Assembly: GCA_010356995.1 (NCBI GenBank)
Contig: ML996712.1
Location: forward strand, 75,204-139,203
DNA length: 64,000 nucleotides
Direction of reading: 5' to 3'
Source: Trichodelitschia bisporula
Lineage: Eukaryota
Below the pieces are notes generated by a model. It searched no databases, was not told the origin of the DNA, and saw nothing but the letters and a program-made list of their open reading frames with translations. Positions 33,531-59,429 of this stretch are shown here, piece by piece. How positions within the stretch are numbered: position 1 is the first letter of the stretch; every line of letters starts with the position of its first letter. The position numbers and the translations under genes are program-made.

Positions 33531-34454
33531 AGCTCTCTGCTTTCCACCCCATTGTCCACCACCCTCAGCCATTCTTCATCGGCTCACATGTCGTCCACTC
33601 AGCAAATGTGCTTTAGACCTGCATCCAGCCACCGGAAGGCAGTAAGTTTCTTGGCCGGATCGAAAGGTCATCGCATCGCGTCGCTTGTTCTGCTTCACTG
33701 TCAAGAACTCGGCTTGTGAGCAAGAGAGCAAAGAAATGAAAATGCTGGGGAGCGGTGGGGAAGTTCACGACCGGCATCGGAACAGTCTCCTCTCCGATCG
33801 TGCTTGTCGTCGTAGCCGTGTTCGTCATCCCGGTGGTGCGCATTTCTCATCCCAGTTCGTCTACTAGGTAGTCACATTCATATGCCACAGCTTAATCATG
33901 CTTTCCGTCGAACATTTTACTCGTTCCTGCTCCGTGGCCTGTCCGCTTGAGCTTGAGCTTGACAGCTGCCAGACTGGACGACTGGCAGCCATTGTAGGTA
34001 CCTCCTCCTATACTTCGTCAACTCCGTACAGCAATGCTATCTTCCGTATCCTGACCTCCAAATCAGCCCGTCATCCAGTGATCAAAGATGACATGCACCT
34101 CGTCCTGAACAAATCGTACACTCACGTCGCGCGCGTCCCGGCCCAGTCCAAGCAACATGCCGCAGTGCGAACCTCTTCTCATGCATTCAACATCACAATA
34201 TCTGCATCTCAAGAAATTCAACAACAAAGCCCCTAGTGTGCCGCCACCATGTAAATCAGACGCGCAACCGTCGTCTGCGCTAAATTACCCTAACCCGCGC
34301 CCGACGCTCAGACCCATGACGTACGCCACCAAGCTTGGCGAAACACCTGCAACACCACACGCGCCCCATCACCAGCTCTTTGTTTACACCCCGTGCCGCC
34401 TCCCCCCCAAAAACACACCACCCTCCGGCCTCATCCACCCCCAGAGGCAACAAG

Positions 34455-35923
34455 ATGTCCTCCCTCCTCGACTTCCTCCGCGCCCACGAGCCCGCCTTCC
34501 AAAGGTCCGCCACCCCTCCCCCTCCCCCCACAAGCTCTCATTCTCGTCCCTAGCTAACACAAGCAGCAAATCCCGCCTCGCATCCCTCTACTCCGACTTC
34601 CGCCACCAAAGCGCCACAAACCCCGACGGCTACGCCGCCAACATCGCAACCTGGCACCGCGCCCTCAGCGCTGCAACCCGCGCCGGCCTGCTCCCGGACG
34701 ACAACGGCGCGAGTTCCCCCTTCGTCCTCAGCACAGGCCCGGGTCTCGCGCGCGCGCTCGAGACGCGCGAGTGCGGTCGGCCGCTAGCGCTAGATGCCGT
34801 CATCGCGGACGCACTGGCGAAGAAAACCCTCCTCCCGGTCCCGGAATTTTTGAGTAGTAAAACAAGCATCTACGCCCGCGGCTGGGTGCCCTCGCCCTGG
34901 GACGTTCTCTCCTGGGCCGTGCGCGCCGCGGGTCTAGGCAGCGGGCCCAGCGTCACGGGCCGCTTTGTGGTACTTGAGAATCTGGAGGCCGCGCTTGCGG
35001 GGCTGCAAGCTCAGCTGAAGAATGCGGGGGAGGAGGTGCATTCGCTCGCGACGTTTGCGCGGGAGCATGGGGGGTTGCTTGGGGAGGGGGTGCTGCTGTC
35101 AAATGCGGATTTGCATATTCTGCTTACGTATTTGAGCCGCGATAAGCCGGTGCTTAGCTATGATGCTACCGCGGGGGTGGTCAAGCTCGCGCCGGCGCAT
35201 ACGACGCCTGTGCCGATTACGGAGGCGGATGTTAGTGTTGCGAATTTGCGGACGTTGCAGGCCGATTTGTCCGCGCAGATTTCGCCGCTGGAGGACCGGC
35301 TCACGGCGCTGGACGCGCGGGCTCGCGAACTAGTGGCGCAGAAAGCCAATACAGCGGCCTTGGCGGCATTGCGGAGTAAGAAGATGGTGGATAGCGCGCT
35401 GGCGAAACGGCGGGCGGCGCTGCACCAGGTTGAAGATGTGCTGGGGCAGATTGAGGCGGCGAGGGATAATGTGGCACTCGTGAAGGCGATGCGGGAGAGT
35501 GCAGCGGTGATCAAGGGGCTTAATGCGGAGGTTGGTGGGGTGGAGGGGGTGGAACGAGTGGTGGATGCGCTGAGGGAGCAAACTGAGGTCGTGGAGGATG
35601 TTACGCGTCTGGTTGGAGAGGTAGGGGCGGAGGGTGTGGATGCGGGGGATGTGGAGGAGGAATTTGAGGCGTTGGAGAGGGAGGAGAGGGAGAAGGTTGA
35701 GGCGGAGGAGAGGAGGGTGCGGAACGAGAAGGAGCAGAAGGAGGCGGCTGAGCGGGCGAGGCGTTTGGCTAATTTGGAGAACTATGAGGAGGAGCAGCGG
35801 GCGAAGGCAGAGGCTGAGAAGCAGACGGCTGAGGTAGAGAAGCCGCAGGGAAAGGAGAATGCCAGCCCAGCGGAGAAGGAGTTGGAGGAGATGGCGTCGT
35901 CGTTGGGCGCGCTGAATCTGTAA
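34455..35923 (+). CDS. CHMP7/Chm7-type ESCRT-II/III hybrid protein (Snf7 family); exons 34455-34504 and 34567-35923, ~468 aa
   Basis: N-terminal RLASLYSDF....NPDGY.ANI..W typical of CHMP7, and a C-terminal Snf7 coiled coil (ALAALRSKK...LGQIE.A..N...V). Intron GTCCGC...GCTAAC...CAG. Confidence 0.87.
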
Positions 35924-39361: not shown

Positions 39362-40861
39362 TCACGCCCCCCTCCCCCTCCCCCTCCCCCTCCCCCTCTC
39401 CCCAACCGCCCACCCCTCCATCTTTTTCGCCAACAAAACACACCTCCTATCCACCAATCTCCAAAACAAATCCGCCGCCCAAATCGTCGCAGCAGTCACA
39501 ATCTCCGTAGCCAGCAACCAGCCCACCTCCTTCCCAAGCATGTCCTCAGGCCGACGACGCGTCCACGTCATCCGCCACATCGCCGGCACAATCCAGAAGC
39601 CGAGCATATGGACCACGGGGCAGTGGACGAGGTACAGGGCGTAGGAAATGCGGCCGAGGTATACGGCGTAGCGGGAGGTGAAGATGCTCCGCAAGGCGTT
39701 CGTGCCGATTGAGGATGTCGCGTACACGGTGAGTAGTGCTCCGAGGCAGTGCGGGAAGCGCCACGATTCACCGTGCCAGAAACTGGGATTGAGGTGGCGT
39801 AAAATGAACTTATAGCCCGGGGCGGTGCTAGCGTGACCATAGTCCGGGACCGATAGCAGATGCAAGCCAGCGACGAAAAGCGCGCCCTTGAAGAAATCGC
39901 TCCTCGTCCGCCGCGGCGGTAAACTGATCCCAAACCTAGCCGGCGATGGCGGGGCCGCCGATTCTTCAAGCATCTTAAGCTGCGCCAGCGACGTCCCCGC
40001 AAAAAGCAACCACGCCTCCCAGCAAAACGAGAAGTAGCAGTACACCACCATGCCCACAAGCCCCACAAGCCTCATCCGCGGCGCCAGCCGCGCAAAGCTC
40101 ACCAGCGTCGCGAACAGGACGATGGAGCTGCGGAACTCGACTGGCAGGGTTCAGAGGTGCACATCGTACGGGTAGTTTTGCGGCGACCAGGCGTTGACCC
40201 AGTTCCAGGTTGCGGACAGCCAGTCGGAGAATTGCGTGCTGAAGGGGTCTTTGCGCCACGTTGGTGGTTGTGGCTCTTTGAAGCCGGGCATGTCTTGGTC
40301 TTTGAATACGGCGTGGCCTCTGTCGTACAGGCCGGCGGAGATTCAGAGCATGACGATGAATGTCGATACCACGCCCGGCAGGAAGAGGCGCTTTGCACGT
40401 CGGAAGATGGCTGAGCTTAGGCGCTGCAGACATGCGTCGTGGGACTGCTGGTGAAAGGCGCAGAGGGGCGCCCAGGATAAGGCACAGCTTGAAATGATGA
40501 AGAACAAGGTCACCATGGCGGGACCAGCTGTCATAAGGTGCAGAATCGGGATCTGTGTGATGGCGAAGTGGCGCTCGTCTGTGCCGAAGCCGACCTAGAG
40601 GCTTGAGTGTGTCGCAGCAGTGAAGTGGCGGATATACACTATGAAGGATGCATACCCTCGCATGCCATCAAGCCATGCCGTGGGCGTAGGAACGATCTCT
40701 TCATACGTGTTTGGCTGCAGGAAGCTGGGAAGGAAGGCGGCGGCGGCGCTTATTGCCGTCAGGAGCAGCCTGGCGAAGGGCGAGGCATATGAGGACGGTA
40801 GATCCTTCTCGAGGTCCAGGAATGGATCTGCCTCCACGGGGGATGGAGGATCGAGTCGCAT
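39362..40861 (-). pseudogene. Acyltransferase-3 (membrane O-acyltransferase) with three in-frame stop codons
   Basis: A single frame contains WLDGMRG, GPAMVTLFFIIS, FRRAKRL, HL*TLPVE and YLGRISYALYLVH. Stops are TAG 40595-40597, TGA 40343-40345 and TGA 40151-40153. Confidence 0.85.
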
Positions 40862-43325: not shown

Positions 43326-43931
43326 CCGGCTACGCAGAGCGCAGCAAGGAAGATGCTATATGGAACAGTTTGACGGAAGGGGAGCGCGTGAGGGATTTGG
43401 AAGAGGGCGTGCTCGATATACGGAAAACGAAGAATTGCGACGTCTGCAATGGCAAACGGGCCTATATGCGTGGAGACGGTTAATACGGAAGCAGAACGTT
43501 ATAAGAATTACCTGTTGCTTCCACAAGCTCGAAAAATGAGAGTGAGTAATGGGTGCGATGTAGAGATGATGCAGAGTTGGAGGATGTTGAAGAGATGTAG
43601 TGGGATTCACGATGACTTCGCGCTCCTTCCTCCTCAGTCGCCCCCACACCCCCGGTGGATTCCAAGGCAAACGCTGAGCATCAACAGAACTCACATCACG
43701 ACCCATCTCGGACAAAAGTCATGATCAGAAAAATGTTCGCTATACGCTCAACCTACAACCTGGTATGATGTACAACTACACGCCCCCTGACACCAGAGCG
43801 TTACCAAATCTTCAAACGAGAGACCGACAACCAAAAGCCATATCTATCTCAATAAGTCAAGCCATTCGTATCAAAAGTGCCTACCCACCGTCATAACCCC
43901 AGAAACCCCAAACGCCGCCAAACGCTATCCC

Positions 43932-46634
43932 TCAATGGCGCCCATGCGCTCTCCGATGAGCTGGCGCCTTCGCAGGCGCCTTGACCTTGGCTGGGGGCTT
44001 CGCATGCAGCTTCGGCGCGGGATGATCGCCCGTCTTTGGGATAGCATTAGCACCCGTCTTGGCCTTGTCCTCGATCTTCGCATTCTCAGCCTCCGCCTCC
44101 TCATACGTCATCTCCTCCGCCTCCTCCGCCACCTCCGGCACCATCTCCTCGATCTCCTCCTCCATGGGCCGGCGGCTCCCACCCACGATCCCCACCTCCG
44201 GCAGATCCTTGAATGGCACTGGTTGGCCCAGCAAAGGCGCGTTTGTCTTGAGCAGGTCGTAGTGTAGCCGCGTCGTTTCCCAGTTCAGGTAGTCGAGTTT
44301 GTGGCCGCACCGCTTTTGCGCGAGTTCGCCGGGCTTGACGCCGCTGTCGCAGCATCCCCCCCAGCAGTCGGACCAGCGGTATATGACGGAGCGCGAGGGG
44401 TGGGGGGAGTAGGTCCGGTCGATGATGTTCCAGAGGGTTGGGATGGCGATTTCGTGCATGATGCGCGCGGAGGCGATGATGGTTGATAGGTGCTGGAAGT
44501 CGGCGAAGAAGCGGCGCGGGAGGTAGTACATGTCGCTCCAGCTGGGAGAGGGTTAGCCCTGTACGAAAGCTTTAGGTCAGTAAGGTTAACTCACCCTACA
44601 CAGAACTGCTCTGGGTCGACGTCGTAGTTCGGCAGATAGCTCTTGATCACGGTACTCGCCATCTTCGCGCGCTCGTGCTCCTTCGCGCCGAACCACATCC
44701 AATCCGGCACCCATTCCTTGACGTCGCGCATGCAGAGGTACGGAATGCTTCCTTTGTCCAGTACCCAGAGCTTGTCCATGGGCATGTCGTGGAAGCTGAG
44801 CGGCTCAACCCACGCGTCGAAATGAAAGAACAGCAGGCCCTCAACATCGTCATACGCCGGATCTTCGAGAATCAGCTTCATAGTCGCGCGCACAGGGTCA
44901 TAAATGATAAACGAGTCATCGCAGTAGTCACGCTCAATGGTAGTCTCGTTACCCAGGTGGCCACTTTCCGGCATGCTGATGTGAATCGAGTGGAAGTACG
45001 GCGAATACCCCTCATACAGCGTCTCCACGCGCTTCGGCAGATCGGCATTAAGCCGGATGAAAGCCATGGTGTTCTTAAACGGCGACTCGAAGACCGGCAC
45101 CACCGGCTCCGGCTCAACGTACTCGACAATCGGCATCGTCGCGTTCGTAAAGTCCGTGTCTAGGACTGGTGGCTCCGAGGCGTTCGGGGCGGGGATCATG
45201 TGCGTGCGCCAGTAGGTCAGCATGCCGATGAGCACAAAGGCCATGCCAACCGCGATCGCGAGGCCGACTTTGCGGAAGATGCCATGAGGGGAGAGCGAGG
45301 TCATGAGGCGTGAGAAGAAGCTGCGCTCTGCGGGCACCTCGGCGGGGGTTAGGGTTGCTTGAGCGGGTGGCTTGGGCGTGGCCTCCATGTAGAGCCAGGT
45401 GGCGAGGAAGACGGTGAGCGTGCCGGGGATGACAAGGAAGGAGAAGTTGATGTTGAAGAGGATGGGCGAGATGTAGAGCAGGATGGCGGTGGAGATGGCT
45501 GTGGCGAAGCACTTGATCAGGGCGTCGGCATCTGGATGGTTAGTTTTCCGTTTCGCTTCAGGTTCGAGGCTGAAAACTCACACTTGTAGACCGCAGTCAT
45601 GGCCAGGCCGACGAACACGTTGCTGATGATCACCATCACGGCTCCGAGGTTGGCGTATCCCGTGAAGAAGCCCGGCTCATCCGCATTGATGAAGCGAATC
45701 ACAACGTGGACAACAAGGTTGATAATGCACCCAGCCGCATACAGCGTCATGTTCATAACATGCAGCGACCCATCCACGCTCTTGCACAGCTTCTGGTTGT
45801 ACACGCTCGACACCGCGCTGAGCGTCGTCTGGAACACGAGCAGCAAGTACGTCGACAACGGGTACGTAGCACCGCCATTAGGCCCGTACTGCGTGACCAC
45901 GATACCACACACCTGCAGCACGATGGCAATCCACTGCCCGCCGACGATCTTGGTCCCCAGCGCGAAGATCATGACTACGGCAGTGATGAGCGTGGTGCCG
46001 GACTTGATTAGCTGGATGGTGCCCGGGTCGGCCAGGCGGAAGAGCACGAAGATCTAGTCCCGTTAATTGCGTTCGTCGAAAGGCGGATGCGCGTGCTTAC
46101 GGTGTTGTTGATAATGACGTAGAACAGCGCGAGATGCACGAAGCCATACCGCGTCTCCGCGGGGATTTCTTCCCTCACCGCGGCCATGAAACCCGCGGCG
46201 TCGAATCTGCGCACCGGCGCGGACTGTGTCTGGCTAGGCGTGGCGAGGAAGTCCTCCTCCTCTAGCAGCCGCGAAGAACTGCTCTCGGCGTCGTTTTCAT
46301 CGTCCTTGAACGCGGCGGGCGTCTCCTTGATCTCGATGTCCGGCTCCTGGGCGACTTCGGCGTAGGTCCGCTTTTTCCACTCGCGGAAGAAGAGATACGT
46401 GGAGAGCAGGAACTTGAGGAGTTCGGAGATGGTGACGGAGGACGAGGCTGAGAAGGCATATCTGGGTTCGTTAGTTCGGCGTTTTCTGATCAAGTTCCGT
46501 ATAGCTCACCGTCCGTTGGTCTGCGAGGCTTTGTATAGCAGACCGATGCTGACCTGGATCGCAACGAGTGCAAGAGCAGCCGCGTACGCGGGGCTCAGGC
46601 TCGACACCAGAGCCTTCACGTTAAGAAGCCTCAT
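43932..46634 (-). CDS. Nucleotide-sugar transporter (SLC35A-like) fused to a TM helix and a STELLO/DUF288-like luminal domain; 5 exons, ~834 aa
   Basis: Exons are 46634-46510, 46461-46101, 46053-45582, 45531-44595 and 44541-43932 (2505 nt, all introns GT-AG with branch sites). NST motifs: SVTISELLK, LFYVIINN, DPGTIQL.K, QW.A, VYKYADALIK. The frame continues without a stop into GLLFFHFDAW...DKLWVLDK...WSDMYYLPRRFFADF...HEIAIPT. Confidence 0.85.
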
Positions 46635-47756
46635 CCTTCAAAAAAAACTCAAAGAACGTATATCCACCACAGACACAGATCTCAAGAATAACGTAAAGAG
46701 CGTCAAAGATACCAAAAAATCTACTTGGTCATGTCTCAACTCAACAAGAGAGCGACTGAGGGGCAAGGCAAAGTCACGAAGAGAGTCTCCAGCAAATAAG
46801 GCGCCGCCGGCAAACGAAAAGCTCATATCCAACCCACCGCCATGCTCGCCGCACGGGGCCTCGCAGGCGTTAGGGGGGGAAAGCAGTTGAAAGGGGGGCG
46901 CGGACTGGTACCTTGGCTAGCTTCAGCAGCCCGCTTCACGGTCAGCCCCCATATCGCCAGCCCCTGAAGCCAGAGGCGCCCGCCCGCTTCTCCTGGCATG
47001 CGGTCTGAAAGCGAGCGCTAGGCCGCGCAGGTACAAAGCGGCTGGCGTGGCGGTGGTGTGGAGACGCCTAAGGGACCCAATTCGACGGGCCTATCAGGAG
47101 GGGCGGGTGCTGATAAGGCGTGCTGGAGGGGTGGGTGGAGGAGGATGCCGCTGCGCCATCAGTGAGCAGTTATTTTGAGGAGATCAAGGGATCAACGAGT
47201 AAATGGCATATCAATGACGATAAGGAACGGGCATCAAAGACGATCATGTCAGGGACGGGAGCGGGATGTGCAGTGTGGTGATGTTCCTGCATTTTCACCC
47301 CCTGGCCCAATCAGGCAAGATACGTAAATAGCCAGGAATCGATCCCTGCCTGTTCACGCCGGGACCAGGCCCAAAGCATCCTCACGTGTCAGCGGCCCGT
47401 CGATTCTCCGGCCCAACATCGCCCTACGATGCGCCTTCACCGCCGGCACCAGCCCTGCAGCTTCTCTAGCGATCAAGTTGGCTTCGATGGCTTCACGCGC
47501 TACTGTGCCGCCCGTTCCACACACTTGCACTTCGCCATTAACTAAACCAAAAGTGACATATCTACCAGACACGCTACCCAGGGACTACGCCCTCTACCAC
47601 CAAACGCCAGTGTTCTAGACCCTCCTCCGCCCAAAAGCCCCCCCCCAACAAGCAAAATTAAGCTAGGCATCGCCGACATCAAGCTCCATCGCAATGAACA
47701 ACAGGCACACTAGCCACGCGGCCCCATGACGCGGTACGCTATTCGCGTGGCTAATC

Positions 47757-50128
47757 TCAGAAGCGCACGTTCAGCGAAGCCAACCACGCGGCCTCCGACC
47801 CCCAGTCCCTATACTCGTTCACCTTGAGCCCGAAAAATAGATGCCCTTCGGACGCCAGGTGCCAGAGTACGTCCACGACGCGCAGCTCCGAGGCCCTACA
47901 TCCAGTCTCTAGGCCGGACGTGGATAGCAAGGCGCGGAGCGTGCCCGCAGCATGGACGAACAGCTCGGCGCTCAGGAAGCCCCACCCGCCGCAGCAGAAG
48001 TTGCTGCTCAGAAACGAGCCGTACGCTACATCGGCCACGACATTGTCATACACGAAGCTGACGTAGCTCTTCCGCACCGCGTCCACGAGATCCGGGCGCA
48101 GGAAGCGCTGCGCCGCGTGCATGCCCACGACGTCGTCGCGCACGATCGAGGTGAAGGTCACGTAGTTCCCATCCACGACGCAGTGCGCGAAGTCGTTGTC
48201 TGCGTCTTTGATGAAGAGCGGGCCGAGGATGTTGGCCTCGCGGATTGCGTAAGCGACGGTTTCGACGGCGTCTGGGGACTGCGTGGGGGCGTAGAGGAAG
48301 TCGAGCTTGGAGCGGGTGGTTGCGGGGAGGGCGTCGAAGAGGCGCTCGAAGGCGGTGGTGGAGCCGCATTGGGATTCGATGAGCGGGCGTAGGACGACGA
48401 GGACGATGCGCGATACGTTGCTTACGTCGAGGTTGGCGATGCTGTTGACGATGATGGGGCGGCCGTTGCCCTGGGATTGGTTAGAAGGGATGGATGGGGG
48501 GCTGGGGGCGCTTACGTTCAGCGTGAGCAGCTTGATGGCCCCGGAGCTGTAGACCTCCTCCATGGCACGGCCGAGCGCAGGCACCAGCACCGTAACCTTG
48601 CGATCCTTGGTCGTGAAGGGCGCATCGAGGTTTACGCGCGACACGGGCGTGACGGCCAGGTACTGCTGGGGCGGGAAGATGCCCCCTGAAAACAAGCTGT
48701 CGTAGATGCGCTCCAGCCCGTTCATGATGCAGTTTTTCTCGCTTTCCTCCGTCATGTACGGCAGGATGCGCGCGAGGCAGAAGAACTCGAACAGCGGGAC
48801 TATGTCCCAGAAAGCGTATTCGCAGTACGCGGCCTTGACTTTTTCGCAGTACATGGCGAGGATGGAGACACAGCGCGCGCGCCGGTGCTCGGGGATTGAG
48901 GTTTGGGTTAGGAACCATTGGTGTCGTACGTCTTGGAGCAGCTTTGCGATGTCTTGGAGGGGAGATTCCTGGCTTGTTTAGTCTTTGTGTCGGTTGATCT
49001 GGTGCTTTACTTACGACGAAGCAGTCGAGGAAGTCGAACACGCACAACTCGCGGTTCTCCGGGTCAACGAGCATATTTGCCAGCGTCAAATCGCCATGGC
49101 ACGGCCCGATCGGCACCTCGCGGCGTCCCAGCTGGCGAAACGAGCTCATAACGCGATCAATCTGGTGCTCGAACGTCTCAATCTCCGCCGGCGTGACAAG
49201 ACTGCTCTTCCGCAGCGCAGCCTTGATGCCCGTAGCCTTCTTCTCAAACTCAGGAAAAACATGCCTTAACTCCACCAACTCACTCAAATTCAAATTCGCA
49301 TCCACCATCTCCACCGCCGTCTCCACAAGCCACTCATTCACCGCCCGGTCCCGCTCCATCATAACATGCCTCACATCCTGAAACGGGATATACTCCATAT
49401 CCACCGTAAACGCGCCAACCTCGCCCTTCACCACCTCCGGCACGCGGATCCCATACACTTCCGGCGTACTCACCGCCCTCAGCCCCGCGGCCCTACACCG
49501 CGCGGCAAACGCAATCTGCTTCTCGATCTGCTTCAACAGGCGATTCCCGTCTTGCTTCGCGCCGACGAAGGCTTCTTTCCGCACAGCCCACATCCCGCTC
49601 GTCAGCCGCCGGATCGTCGCGTCGTCAACGTACGTCCGCGCGCTGCTGTAGCTCGGCTTCTTGACATGTCCGCCGGGCGTGGTTGGGGGGCTCGGTTCGC
49701 GCAAAGCGAGGGCGGGCCGGCGGAGGGCCTTCTGGCTTTGTGATAGTCGAGACCTCGACAATTCGAGGGTCATGTGGAGTTGCGGGCGAATGGGTACGGA
49801 GGAGCGCGCGGCGGAGAGGGTGGCTTGGAGGGCGGGGTCGGCCCAGACTGGCGCGGTTAGTATGATGGTATGGAAGGGGGGTGTTGGATGAGTGGGAGAG
49901 GGCGGGCCTACAGGCGTTGTTGACGCTGAGGTCTGCGACTGGGATGCCGGTGTGCGCATCGTGTATACCGATGATTTGCACGGCGCAGTCGCTCTTGCCC
50001 TGATTCTTGAGCGTCGGGACATGGGATTCCGCCTCGCGCTGGCCGATGCTGCCGGCGCGGAGCCGCGCTGTGGGCGGCGAGGGGGGCGGCGCCGGCGTCG
50101 CGGGATCGAGGAGGGGAGCAGGTGCCAT
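47757..50128 (-). CDS. APH/choline-kinase-like phosphotransferase fused to a degenerate sugar-nucleotidyltransferase domain; 4 exons, ~738 aa
   Basis: Exons are 50128-49912, 49847-49015, 48968-48516 and 48470-47757 (2217 nt). Kinase motifs: AVRK, MEYI, CHGDLTLANML, VFDFLD, DIAKL. NTase-like C-terminal half: VLVPALGR, FIKDADN, KSYV, FCCGGW, DWGS. Confidence 0.85.
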
Positions 50129-51903
50129 TGTGACTTCAGCTCACAGCTACTGTTTCGATGTTTGGTGTTGGGGATCGGGATGGGATCGCAATTGGATGGG
50201 AATTGGGATTGAGGACGCGGGAACAGCTTCAGGCATGCACGCACCCGGGGCTAGGGTCGACTATGTAGTAGCACGATCGCGGCGCCGAAGTCGTCGATGG
50301 GGGGTGGGCGGGAGGCGTGCTCTGGGTGCGCCAACCTTATCTTAGCGGGGGAAGCTGGGGCGGCGCCGCGGCTGCGAGTTCAATATTTGCGGTATATACG
50401 GGCGCTTTGGCGAGGGCGAGACGTGATGGTAAATTACGATGGTTACCGCTACAGGTGGGGGAAGCGAGAGGACTAGTTCTGTGATGGACTGGAGGGAATG
50501 GGCCAATGGCAGCGGCTTTTTGGACAACATGGGATGAGCTCCTCCTGATGTCCTTTCGTGATCGATGGAAGGGGTGACGTCTTTTCCTGCGGTGGGGGGG
50601 GGGTGGCGGAGTGAGTTGACGGGAGTGTGTTTCTCCTATTCTTGGGAGAGAGCGTGGGCGTGAGACATGTTCGCGGGAGATGGACAGAGTAAGTAAGCGG
50701 TTTCAGCACACGAGGATGGATGGATTATGTTACGGGAAATACGAGGCTTGAAGGCTAATTGCGCTTACGGTAGCGCCTGTCACTGCGTGAAGGCATGTGG
50801 AGCGCTGTTTGGACATGACTTGGGATGCTCTCAGAATGTGCATTGCATTTCGCAGGATCACTTCCTTCATGGCTTTCCTATCACCATCGCTTACGGAGTA
50901 CACCTCTTCCCTTCCGCTCCAGACTGATCTCAATACAGCCCCGGGAAAGCCTCTCCGCAAAAGCAGGGAATTCATCGCAGCAAATCGGCTCCGCACATGC
51001 AAACCCCATCCGCCAGGTCCAGGCCGACAAGGCTGAACGCACGTCCTCATTTCCCCCAGTAGTAGATCCCACGCCAAGCCCAGGGGTTGCGCCGCTCCAA
51101 AGGGCTGGGCAGGTGTGGGGCGGATTAACTTGAAAAGGGGCTAGCAATCACGCTGGACGCGCCGCCATGTGTTCCGGCGCTGTGTGGAGAGCTGAAAACC
51201 ATCGTGGGCAGCGAAGGGCCGAGACTGGCGGCTAATATTGCACGCTATTATTGCTGAGGGAGGTGGCGACGCTCGACACCCGCAACCGAGGTCGCCAGTG
51301 CATCTGGGGAAGACGCGGTAGGGAAAGACACACACTCAGGCTGGCATTGTGGGATGCAAATCTTCCGCTGATCGGCGAGCGCTCCCGCCCGCACCTCCGC
51401 TTCTTCAATCTCACTTATCAGCGATCTGCTGCGCCGCTTGCGAGCTTGCGTTTCAGATGAGACTGCTCGGAGTGCTCGGGCGAGCGCCATTGCGAACACT
51501 CCCAACGTAGTATAACGGCGGGTCTGCCCGCGCCCGGCGTGCCCGTAGCGCGTACCCGTAGCGTGCGAGTGATGGCGTCGGCTAAGTCAAGCCAAAATTT
51601 CGATAAGCTAGCGGGGGGCCGGGCCCGAAGCTATGCATCCCGGCAAGTGTTAGCGGATGGAATGGAGGGGGGGAGTGAAGAGGGGGTGGCAGAGTGGACT
51701 GGGCCTTAGGCGTCGACTTCGAGAAGCTAAGAAAGGAAATATGGTAAAAGGGGGGCCCCTTGATCTGGAGGGGTGACGACGTCTGATGGAAGGATAGGAG
51801 AACATCTTGGGGCTTTTGAAGCTTTGCATCGCTGCCGTCCGCGCTCACTATCACCAACTCCAAACTCCCATCTTATCCTATACCGACCAACACTGATATC
51901 ACG
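50129..51903. promoter_or_regulatory. Shared divergent intergenic/promoter region of the kinase-NTase and NTase-HAD genes
   Basis: The two genes are head-to-head and there is no credible coding region between them. Confidence 0.5.
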
Positions 51904-58304: not shown

Positions 58305-59429
58305 ATGACCACCCAAGAGTCCATCCGCCTACCCTACCCCTTTCCCCAAACCGCATTTGACACCCCCCGCCTCAGCCTCCGTGAATACCGCCACTCAGAT
58401 GCCTACGCCCTGCACGCCATATTCTCCGACCCAGGCGTTATGAATTACTGGTAACGCAACCACCCCCTCCTTCCCTCACCAACCTCACCAACCCCCAGGT
58501 CAACTCCGCCTCATACAAGCACCGACCAAACGAAAGTCTGGCTCCGCAGGACCCTCGACTCGAGCAACAACGGCACAACTGACTTCATAATCACCCTCCG
58601 CGGCACGAACATTGCGATCGGCAAAGTTGGTCTCTGGCGGTTGCTTCCCGATCCTAGCACCCTCGGGTCCGACCCCAACACCCTCTGCCCTACCCTTTCC
58701 TCACCCGAAGCGGGCGAGCTCGGCTTCATGCTCGGCCAGGAGTACACCCGGTACGGGTACATGAGCGAGGCCCTGGGCGTGCTGCTGCCGTATTACTTTG
58801 AGCGGTTAGGCTTAGTGCGCGTGATTGCAGATGTTGACCCGAGGAACCTGCCTGCGAGGTCATTGCTGGTTAAAGTGGGGTTTGAGGAGAAGGGGTACAG
58901 AAAGGAAACGTTTGTTGTGGGCGGGAGGTTAGTTGATAGTGTGGATTATGTGCTTGAGCGGCACGTGTGGCAGTTGAGGAGAGAGGAGGCGGCGGTGATG
59001 GAAAGGGAGAGGGAGCTGCTAGAGGAGTTAGAGAAGATGAAGGAGATAAGAGAGAAGGCGGAGATGGAAGAGATGGGGCAGCGGGAAGAGGTGTTAGCAG
59101 AAGAGGAGAGGAAGCGGGAGAAGATGACGAAGCTGAGAGAGGAGATACTAGGGAAGAAGATGAGCTGGGCAGAATATTTCAGGGAGCAGCTAGAGAAGAT
59201 GAAGTTGGAAGAGAATAAGAGGCGGGAGGAGAAGATGAAGCGGGAGGAGAAGATGAAGTGGGAGGAGACGAAGAGGCGGAAGGAGATGAAGAAGCGGAAG
59301 GAGAAGAGGAAGCCGGGAGAGAAGAGCGAGCCGGAAGAGAAGCAGGAACCGGAACAGAAGAGGGAGCCGGAGGAGAAGAGTGAGCTGGAAGAGAAGGGGT
59401 CGCCGGATGACGGCTGGACTTTGATCTAG
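58305..59429 (+). CDS. GNAT (RimJ/RimL-type) acetyltransferase with a charged coiled-coil tail; 2 exons, ~358 aa
   Basis: TPRLSLR...FSDP.VM.YWS.PPH...IGK.G...ELGFML...YGYMSEAL...ADVDPRN...LL.KVGF. Intron 58451-58498. Confidence 0.87.

Follow-up and report, generated by a model that had tools for sequence, protein, structure and literature searches.

The window analysed here is a 64,000-nucleotide (nt) stretch of contig ML996712.1 (assembly GCA_010356995.1) of Trichodelitschia bisporula, a Dothideomycete of the order Phaeotrichales. On its minus strand, at 46634-43932, it carries one expressed gene that probably gives rise to a single membrane protein of 834 amino acids (aa), in which a nucleotide-sugar transporter is followed by an eleventh membrane helix, a stem and a glycosyltransferase-like domain of the GT-A fold (hereafter the C-domain); the C-domain would then be a transferase tethered in the lumen beside its own transporter, which would serve it by nucleotide exchange. 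In this protein a known type of transporter is covalently joined to an unannotated GT-A family; the protein is already public, and only its transporter half is annotated. Public databases label the fused proteins 'UDP-galactose transporter' (UDP, uridine diphosphate) or 'CMP-sialic acid transporter' (CMP, cytidine monophosphate) and ignore the C-terminal half. No account of the fungal C-domain, or of a transporter and a glycosyltransferase that are naturally fused, was found in the full-text literature, a search with subscription journals and spelling variants outside its scope.

Splicing joins five exons across four introns of 48, 47, 50 and 53 nt (introns 1 to 4), all with GT..AG borders and CTAAC-like branch sites, into an in-frame coding sequence of 2505 nt that specifies 834 aa and a stop codon. 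The product is letter for letter the same as the deposited EJ06DRAFT_484915 of T. bisporula (P0001), a 'hypothetical protein' that is named 'UDP-galactose transporter' in one source. The four canonical introns and the single frame had been proposed in a first-pass annotation made from the letters of this DNA, and the splice model, the identity with the deposited protein and the spliced contigs described below all agree with them. Transporter and C-domain meet within exon 4, and the last transporter helices and the C-terminal part are indeed seen in the splice model to share this exon (45531-44595) with no stop codon between them. The motifs that the annotation had singled out were located in the translation, namely YKYADALIKCF at residues 318-328, VGLAIAVGMAFVLIGMLTYW at 408-427, GLLFFHFD at 551-558, DKLWVLDK at 572-579, SDMYYLPRRFFADF at 634-647 and MHEIAIP at 660-666. 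It had also stated that the list of open reading frames (ORFs) splits the gene into four pieces; the split is real, but the stop-to-stop list breaks the gene into five, four large ones and one of 43 aa.

Evidence on the transcript comes from two public runs (X1 and X2) of one sample and one study, which are available as contigs and are only guessed to be RNA; they contain 88% of the words sampled from the region. Contigs of both runs skip exactly 44542-44594, 45532-45581, 46054-46100 and 46462-46509 (CT..AC ends on the plus strand), and a single contig of 3599 nt spans 43800-46800 with all four introns removed and otherwise no differences. Since the contigs lack the introns, unlike genomic DNA, they derive from spliced RNA. 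The splice model is confirmed by these contigs, and transcript cover is continuous through the transporter/C-domain junction in exon 4, where the spliced contig runs through both halves as one, as the fusion put forward in the first-pass annotation implied. Upstream of the gene, beyond 46635-46800, the 3599-nt contig continues for about 500 nt (its positions 1-497), which may reflect a long 5' untranslated region or a contig that extends into the next transcript.

The N-terminal half (aa 1-367) is a predicted complete nucleotide-sugar transporter of the SLC35A type, with ten helices, a reading made earlier and borne out by Pfam, by alignment to solved structures and by hydropathy. PF04142 (Nuc_sug_transp) matches residues 153-367 of EJ06DRAFT_484915 with 96 bits against a cut-off of 27, and six other fused homologues with 82-99.5 bits. 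The phmmer program matched the maize CMP-sialic acid transporter 6i1r (E 6.5e-17) and the mouse transporter 6oh2 (E 5.5e-12), the aligned part corresponding to residues 5-59 and 77-303 of the 322 in the 6i1r chain, that is, to helices 1-2 and 3-10; ten hydropathy peaks lie between residues 17 and 363. Compared with the solved SLC35A structures (6i1r, 6oh2), the fungal half shares PF04142, the ten-helix core, the E/K pair of helix 2 and the Lys of helix 9, but between helices 2 and 3 it has an insertion that the solved transporters lack, a loop of some 80 residues (aa 69-148) that is acidic (19 D/E) and poorly conserved. The fungal protein further differs from SLC35A in its eleventh helix and in a C-terminal extension of 400 residues that is predicted to be luminal; such transporters have been described as 300-400 residues long (PMC10013753).

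Much of the substrate pocket listed for the mouse transporter (PMC8411240) is kept in the alignment: E55 corresponds to mouse E52, K58 to K55, N160 to N102, T186 to T128, S241 to S188, N263 to N210, Y267 to Y214 and K326 to K272, and the Glu/Lys pair of helix 2 (E55, K58), the Asn of helix 3 (N160) and the Lys of helix 9 (K326) do not vary in any of 26 aligned homologues. Not kept are mouse K124 of helix 4, where the fungal protein has T182 and a Lys three positions before it, Q101 (I159) and T260 (M314). Four positions have been reported to separate SLC35A1 (Y214, F106, A105, A253) from SLC35A2 (G239, Y130, Q129, Q278) (PMC8411240). Here the fungal protein has Y267, F164, I163 and S306, that is, the CMP-type residue twice and the UDP-galactose-type residue at none of them. 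At these positions it resembles a CMP-sialic acid transporter and not the UDP-galactose transporter of its database label, which is a lead to the substrate and not a determination of it.

Beyond the transporter, the additional membrane helix and Pro-rich stem anticipated by the first-pass annotation are recognised by a hydropathy peak of 2.58 at residues 408-426 and by 8 Pro in the 42 residues of the stem. Helix 11 was analysed in 77 of the 78 fused homologues, the remaining one being left out because its transporter match ends early; a hydrophobic peak above 1.3 occupies the interval in all 77 and exceeds 1.6 in 73. On average, the 15 residues before the peak carry 3.18 K/R and 0.42 D/E, and the 15 residues after it 1.56 K/R and 2.26 D/E. 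The solved relatives of the transporter have both ends facing the cytosol, and helix 11 would therefore carry the chain into the lumen of the Golgi or the endoplasmic reticulum (ER). A cytosolic linker and a luminal C-domain, the latter already supposed when the gene was first described, would fit the charge bias around helix 11, six Cys of the C-domain (C586, C630, C691, C695, C696 and C710) that are each kept in at least 93% of 154 full C-domains, and a conserved sequon whose column is occupied in 124 of the 154 sequences.

Residues 469-745 match no Pfam family, whether as protein, as exon translations or in family members. An AlphaFold2 model of residues 455-745, made with a 33-sequence alignment, has a mean predicted local distance difference test score (pLDDT) of 93.6 and a predicted template modelling score (pTM) of 0.91. 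Foldseek returned 52 matches to this model in the Protein Data Bank (PDB) at E<=0.001; the matches listed have the GT-A fold, being glycosyltransferases or nucleotide-sugar enzymes related to them, and reach template modelling (TM) scores of about 0.3-0.5, and sequence identity to the structural matches is 4-10%. A viral structure library agreed with this, its matches being Fringe-like, family 14 and family 8 enzymes. The modelled fold of the C-domain is GT-A, far from any solved family, and a glycosyltransferase fold, as suspected in the first-pass annotation, is what AlphaFold2 and Foldseek find. The Pfam profiles of GT31 and GT14 (Galactosyl_T, Fringe, Branch) had no match in the family members scanned, and a profile of the C-domain alignment gave only a chance RING match (E 0.16) against PDB sequences. 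In comparison with CHPF/CHSY3, Aspergillus GfsA, Manic Fringe, B3GalT5, C2GnT-L and XylT1, which belong to CAZy families GT31 and GT14, the fungal C-domain has H-F-D in place of DXD and motifs of its own: SPFKNT, Y-x-PFF-x(3)-H-x-S, GWSD-x-YY-x-PR, HE-x-A-x-P, DCWG-x-CC and RCGH.

About 44 columns, many of them polar, are kept in at least 90% of the 154 full domains; they include R479, R487, Y495, F499, H503, S505, H556-F557-D558, W560, D635, P640-R641, D646, H661-E662, R709 and H712. D558 is kept in 153 of the 154 sequences, and the position of H556 is Q, R or K in some family members. The tail that follows the C-domain (aa 746-834) differs among homologues in presence and length.

A likeness of the C-domain to STELLO/DUF288 proteins had been claimed in the first-pass annotation. 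It is supported by one kind of evidence, the named clusters that lie closest in the ESM Atlas. Queried with residues 455-745, the top named cluster by features is 'Glycosyltransferase STELLO2' (PF03385 in 62% of its members, score 0.97, 209 of 256 features shared), and by structure two STELLO clusters reach TM 0.72-0.74 against 0.56-0.68 for other glycosyltransferase-family clusters, a comparison that gives neither a residue alignment nor an E-value. The divergent stand-alone member P0148 adjoins an ESM Atlas cluster with PF03385 in 49% of its members (0.97). Against the likeness stand the lack of a canonical DXD motif and the PF03385 profile, which matched 0 of 65 distinct family members (0/7 at E<=10, 0/32 at E<=0.1 and 0/37 at E<=10) and none of the exon translations. 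Two profile searches started from the family (alignment A2, 104 hits; alignment A3, 7 hits) reached no PF03385 protein, which is weak evidence as such a search depends on shared words. By these profiles the C-domain family is not a member of PF03385 as now defined; we read it as a family of its own, to which STELLO is probably the closest named one, and it would be the nearest fungal relative of the STELLO domain.

The STELLO passages of PMC4906169 mention distantly related proteins in fungi, link STELLO to the assembly of the cellulose synthase complex and rest the transferase role on mutants, with no enzyme assay. STELLO1 and STELLO2 are described there as a single helix followed by a luminal glycosyltransferase-like domain, and the layout of the fungal C-domain is consistent with this in its charge bias, Cys, sequon and stand-alone relatives. 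Unlike the fungal C-domain, STELLO is not fused to a transporter. STELLO needs the aspartate motifs DD205-206 and DVD297-299 for its function (PMC4906169); the fungal C-domain has no canonical DXD, and its invariant Asp residues, one in H-F-D and another in W-S-D, may or may not correspond to the STELLO aspartates.

The predicted fusion is conserved across filamentous ascomycetes, in five classes of Pezizomycotina. It is found in the Dothideomycetes (Microthyrium, Tothia, Venturia, Sphaceloma, Patellaria, Elasticomyces), Sordariomycetes (Colletotrichum, Fusarium, Verticillium, Ophiocordyceps, Emericellopsis, Paramyrothecium), Leotiomycetes (Coleophoma, Phlyctema, Cadophora, Diplocarpon, Xylogone, Scytalidium), Lecanoromycetes (Letharia, Psora) and Eurotiomycetes (Cyphellophora, Exophiala). 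With exon 4 as the query, all 56 long homologues (583-1029 aa) carried PF04142, the coverage of exon 4 being 100% in 49 of them and at least 86% in the rest, and an exhaustive single-sequence search over 1.84 billion representatives gave 147 hits. The collected set comprises 268 proteins; a local C-domain profile recognises 232 of them, and the full domain is present in 154. Of the 154, 78 come with a near-complete transporter, 19 with a partial one and 57 with none (26 with and 31 without an N-terminal hydrophobic segment). Many of the unfused entries are short calls from metagenomes, probably fragments. Genuine stand-alone proteins exist in Acephala, Phialocephala, Chlorociboria and the bdelloid rotifers Adineta vaga and A. 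ricciae, and the fusion is therefore not obligatory.

In a FastTree tree of 111 non-redundant C-domains, k-mer filtered from the 154 and with many fragments among the unfused rows, fused and unfused labels are interleaved, the fused label changing 25 times and 40 of the 108 branches being drawn open; whether the fused or the stand-alone form came first is not settled by this tree. The stand-alone copies of A. vaga and A. ricciae (P0124, P0255, P0256 and P0105) are 292-347 aa long, the first three with an N-terminal hydrophobic segment, and the rotifer C-domains group within the fungal sequences as a single clade (support 98), a pattern suggestive of a fungal gene that was transferred to rotifers minus its transporter part. 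The Colletotrichum fusions fall into two size classes, of about 895-918 aa and about 744-767 aa, which occupy separate clades of the domain tree, and the fused gene has therefore duplicated. Two entries carry a third part after the C-domain: in P0051 (1029 aa, Ophiocordyceps) it belongs to epimerase/dehydratase Pfam families, and in P0065 (1080 aa) it is aldehyde-reductase/ketoreductase-like (E 7e-76 to 9phg). The epimerase-like part of P0065 was considered as a hint to the sugar and rejected, being aldehyde-reductase-like and probably a merged neighbouring gene.

In the proposed mechanism, helix 11 would take the chain into the Golgi or ER lumen, and the C-domain would have a type II topology, as a glycosyltransferase held next to the transporter of the same protein. 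An activated sugar would enter through the transporter as a nucleoside monophosphate leaves, the tethered GT-A domain would pass the sugar to a luminal acceptor, and the nucleotide product would go back through the same antiporter. Likely residues of the active site would be D558 (of H-F-D), D635 (of W-S-D), H661/E662, H712 and several Arg. Substrate channelling between transporter and C-domain, raised in the first-pass annotation, may reasonably be inferred. In the mammalian Golgi, transporters and glycosyltransferases have been found to form complexes, which is an experimental precedent (PMC9368800), and pairs of a donor transporter with a luminal transferase have been reported for SLC35A2-UGT8, SLC35A2/A3-MGATs and SLC35A2-B4GalT1/4 (PMC9368800, PMC6453868). 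Both systems pair a donor transporter with a transferase; the mammalian complexes are non-covalent, whereas the fungal pairing is covalent, in one reading frame and with a fixed 1:1 stoichiometry. Direct hand-over of the donor from a Golgi transporter to a glycosyltransferase is still argued from Förster resonance energy transfer (FRET) and pull-down experiments on loose complexes, as in PMC9368800. A conserved one-to-one covalent fusion would be a natural test case for transporter-enzyme coupling, in which the fused protein can be compared with its separate halves. The fusion also links a glycosyltransferase-like family that has no annotation to a transporter with a measurable substrate, through which the donor sugar of the C-domain family can be approached.

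As to this donor, it has been considered that the transporter half might be of the CMP and not the UDP type, and that the donor of the C-domain would then be linked to CMP, for example a sugar resembling sialic acid or Kdo; the pocket positions point this way, and we regard the proposal as doubtful. If it were true, the released CMP would be the counter-substrate of the protein's own antiporter and close the cycle within one polypeptide, filamentous ascomycetes would have an unrecognised route of CMP-sugar glycosylation, and there would be a pointer to the long-sought donor class of STELLO-like domains. A literature search on CMP-sialic acid in filamentous fungi yielded nothing useful.

Several observations weigh against a transporter joined to its own luminal transferase. 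A canonical DXD motif was not found in the C-domain, which has a single acidic residue, the D558 of H-F-D, at that site; the 57 of 154 full C-domains that lack a transporter part include at least the rotifer and some Leotiomycete proteins as true stand-alone forms; the contigs, from one sample guessed to be RNA, show no transcript starts, and an additional internal start may exist; and no gene of sugar metabolism or of a sugar-nucleotide pathway was met among the 10 neighbouring ORFs scanned in the window. The absence of DXD, and of a match to any curated glycosyltransferase family, would suit a C-domain that has the GT-A fold and no transferase activity, being instead a luminal binding or scaffolding module that recruits or regulates Golgi enzymes and sits on the transporter for localisation only; its nearest named relatives, the STELLO proteins, are themselves tied to cellulose synthase complex assembly, with a transferase role drawn from mutants (PMC4906169). 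Such a module is conceivable but unlikely, since the invariant or near-invariant D558, D635, H661, E662, R479, R487, R641, R709 and H712 are what an active site would keep, and metal-independent GT-A enzymes without DXD exist (C2GnT, according to the title of PDB entry 3otk). It has also been considered that an internal start in exon 4, for instance at Met396, 12 residues before helix 11, gives a stand-alone type II protein besides or instead of the fusion, the halves then acting mostly separately. Met396 is placed just upstream of the helix, stand-alone forms with an N-terminal helix occur elsewhere (P0098 of Acephala, P0101 of Chlorociboria, and P0124, P0255 and P0256 of Adineta), and transcript starts are not visible in contigs; both parts lie, however, in one exon and one frame with no stop between them, every one of the 78 fused homologues preserves this open frame, and the spliced contig is continuous through the junction, and we consider this explanation improbable.

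The remaining explanations concern the placing of the C-domain and the reality of the junction. The predicted topology is built on alignment to solved transporters and on hydropathy, and the GT-A domain would be cytosolic if helix 11 did not cross the membrane or if the transporter had an unusual topology. That is very improbable in view of the positive-inside bias around helix 11, the six conserved Cys and the conserved sequon of the C-domain, and stand-alone relatives that are laid out as type II proteins. An unrelated gene has indeed been merged into some database entries (P0065, 1080 aa; P0051, 1029 aa), and the fusion might in the same way be an artefact of annotation or assembly that joins two neighbouring genes. 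The sequence itself contradicts this, the junction lying within a single exon with no stop, intergenic DNA or intron between the parts; moreover, spliced contigs cover the junction, and the same junction recurs in independently annotated genomes of five fungal classes, which leaves an artefact hardly credible. A single protein in which the transporter carries its own luminal GT-A domain is accordingly the reading preferred here. The coordinates of its parts, together with those of the long ORFs around the gene, are collected in Table 1.

Table 1. Features of the transporter/C-domain gene and neighbouring long ORFs, in positions of the window
Feature	Position	Strand	Content and basis
Exon 1	46510..46634	-	ATG at 46634-46632; aa 1-41 and 2 nt; transporter helix 1; joint 46461/46510 in transcript contigs
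Intron 1	46462..46509	-	48 nt, GT..AG; skipped by contigs of X1 and X2
Exon 2	46101..46461	-	Helix 2 with E55 and K58, acidic loop of about 80 residues (aa 69-148), start of helix 3
Intron 2	46054..46100	-	47 nt, GT..AG; splice model and contigs
Exon 3	45582..46053	-	Transporter helices 3-8; PF04142 match on the exon alone 2.4e-12; aligned to solved CMP-sialic acid transporters
Intron 3	45532..45581	-	50 nt, GT..AG; splice model and contigs
Exon 4 (fusion exon)	44595..45531	-	Last two transporter helices, linker, helix 11, stem, first two thirds of the GT-A domain; single open frame
Intron 4	44542..44594	-	53 nt, GT..AG; splice model and contigs
Exon 5	43932..44541	-	Last third of the GT-A domain, low-complexity tail, stop codon 43934-43932
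Predicted SLC35A-type nucleotide-sugar transporter domain, aa 1-367, 10 hydrophobic helices	45389..46634 (spans introns 1-3)	-	PF04142, alignment to 6i1r, hydropathy
Linker, aa 368-407	45269..45388	-	Predicted cytosolic; basic just before helix 11; K/R counts in 77 fused proteins
Predicted eleventh transmembrane helix, aa 408-426	45212..45268	-	Hydropathy peak 2.58
Pro-rich stem, aa 427-468	45086..45211	-	8 Pro in 42 residues; sequons N436 and N449
Predicted GT-A-fold glycosyltransferase-like domain, aa 469-745	44202..45085 (spans intron 4)	-	Without Pfam family; remotely STELLO-like
H556-F557-D558	44816..44824	-	End of central beta strand (model residues 97-102), usual DXD site in GT-A enzymes
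Low-complexity tail, aa 746-834	43935..44201	-	First acidic (Glu-rich), then Lys/Pro/Ala-rich; not conserved
Neighbouring long ORF	34109-35920	+	Snf7 family
Neighbouring long ORF	39365-40150	-	Acyl_transf_3, weak, below cut-off
Neighbouring long ORF	48484-50250	-	APH phosphotransferase family
Neighbouring long ORF	58455-59426	+	GNAT acetyltransferase family

The window as a whole has 56% G+C and contains 10 N characters.

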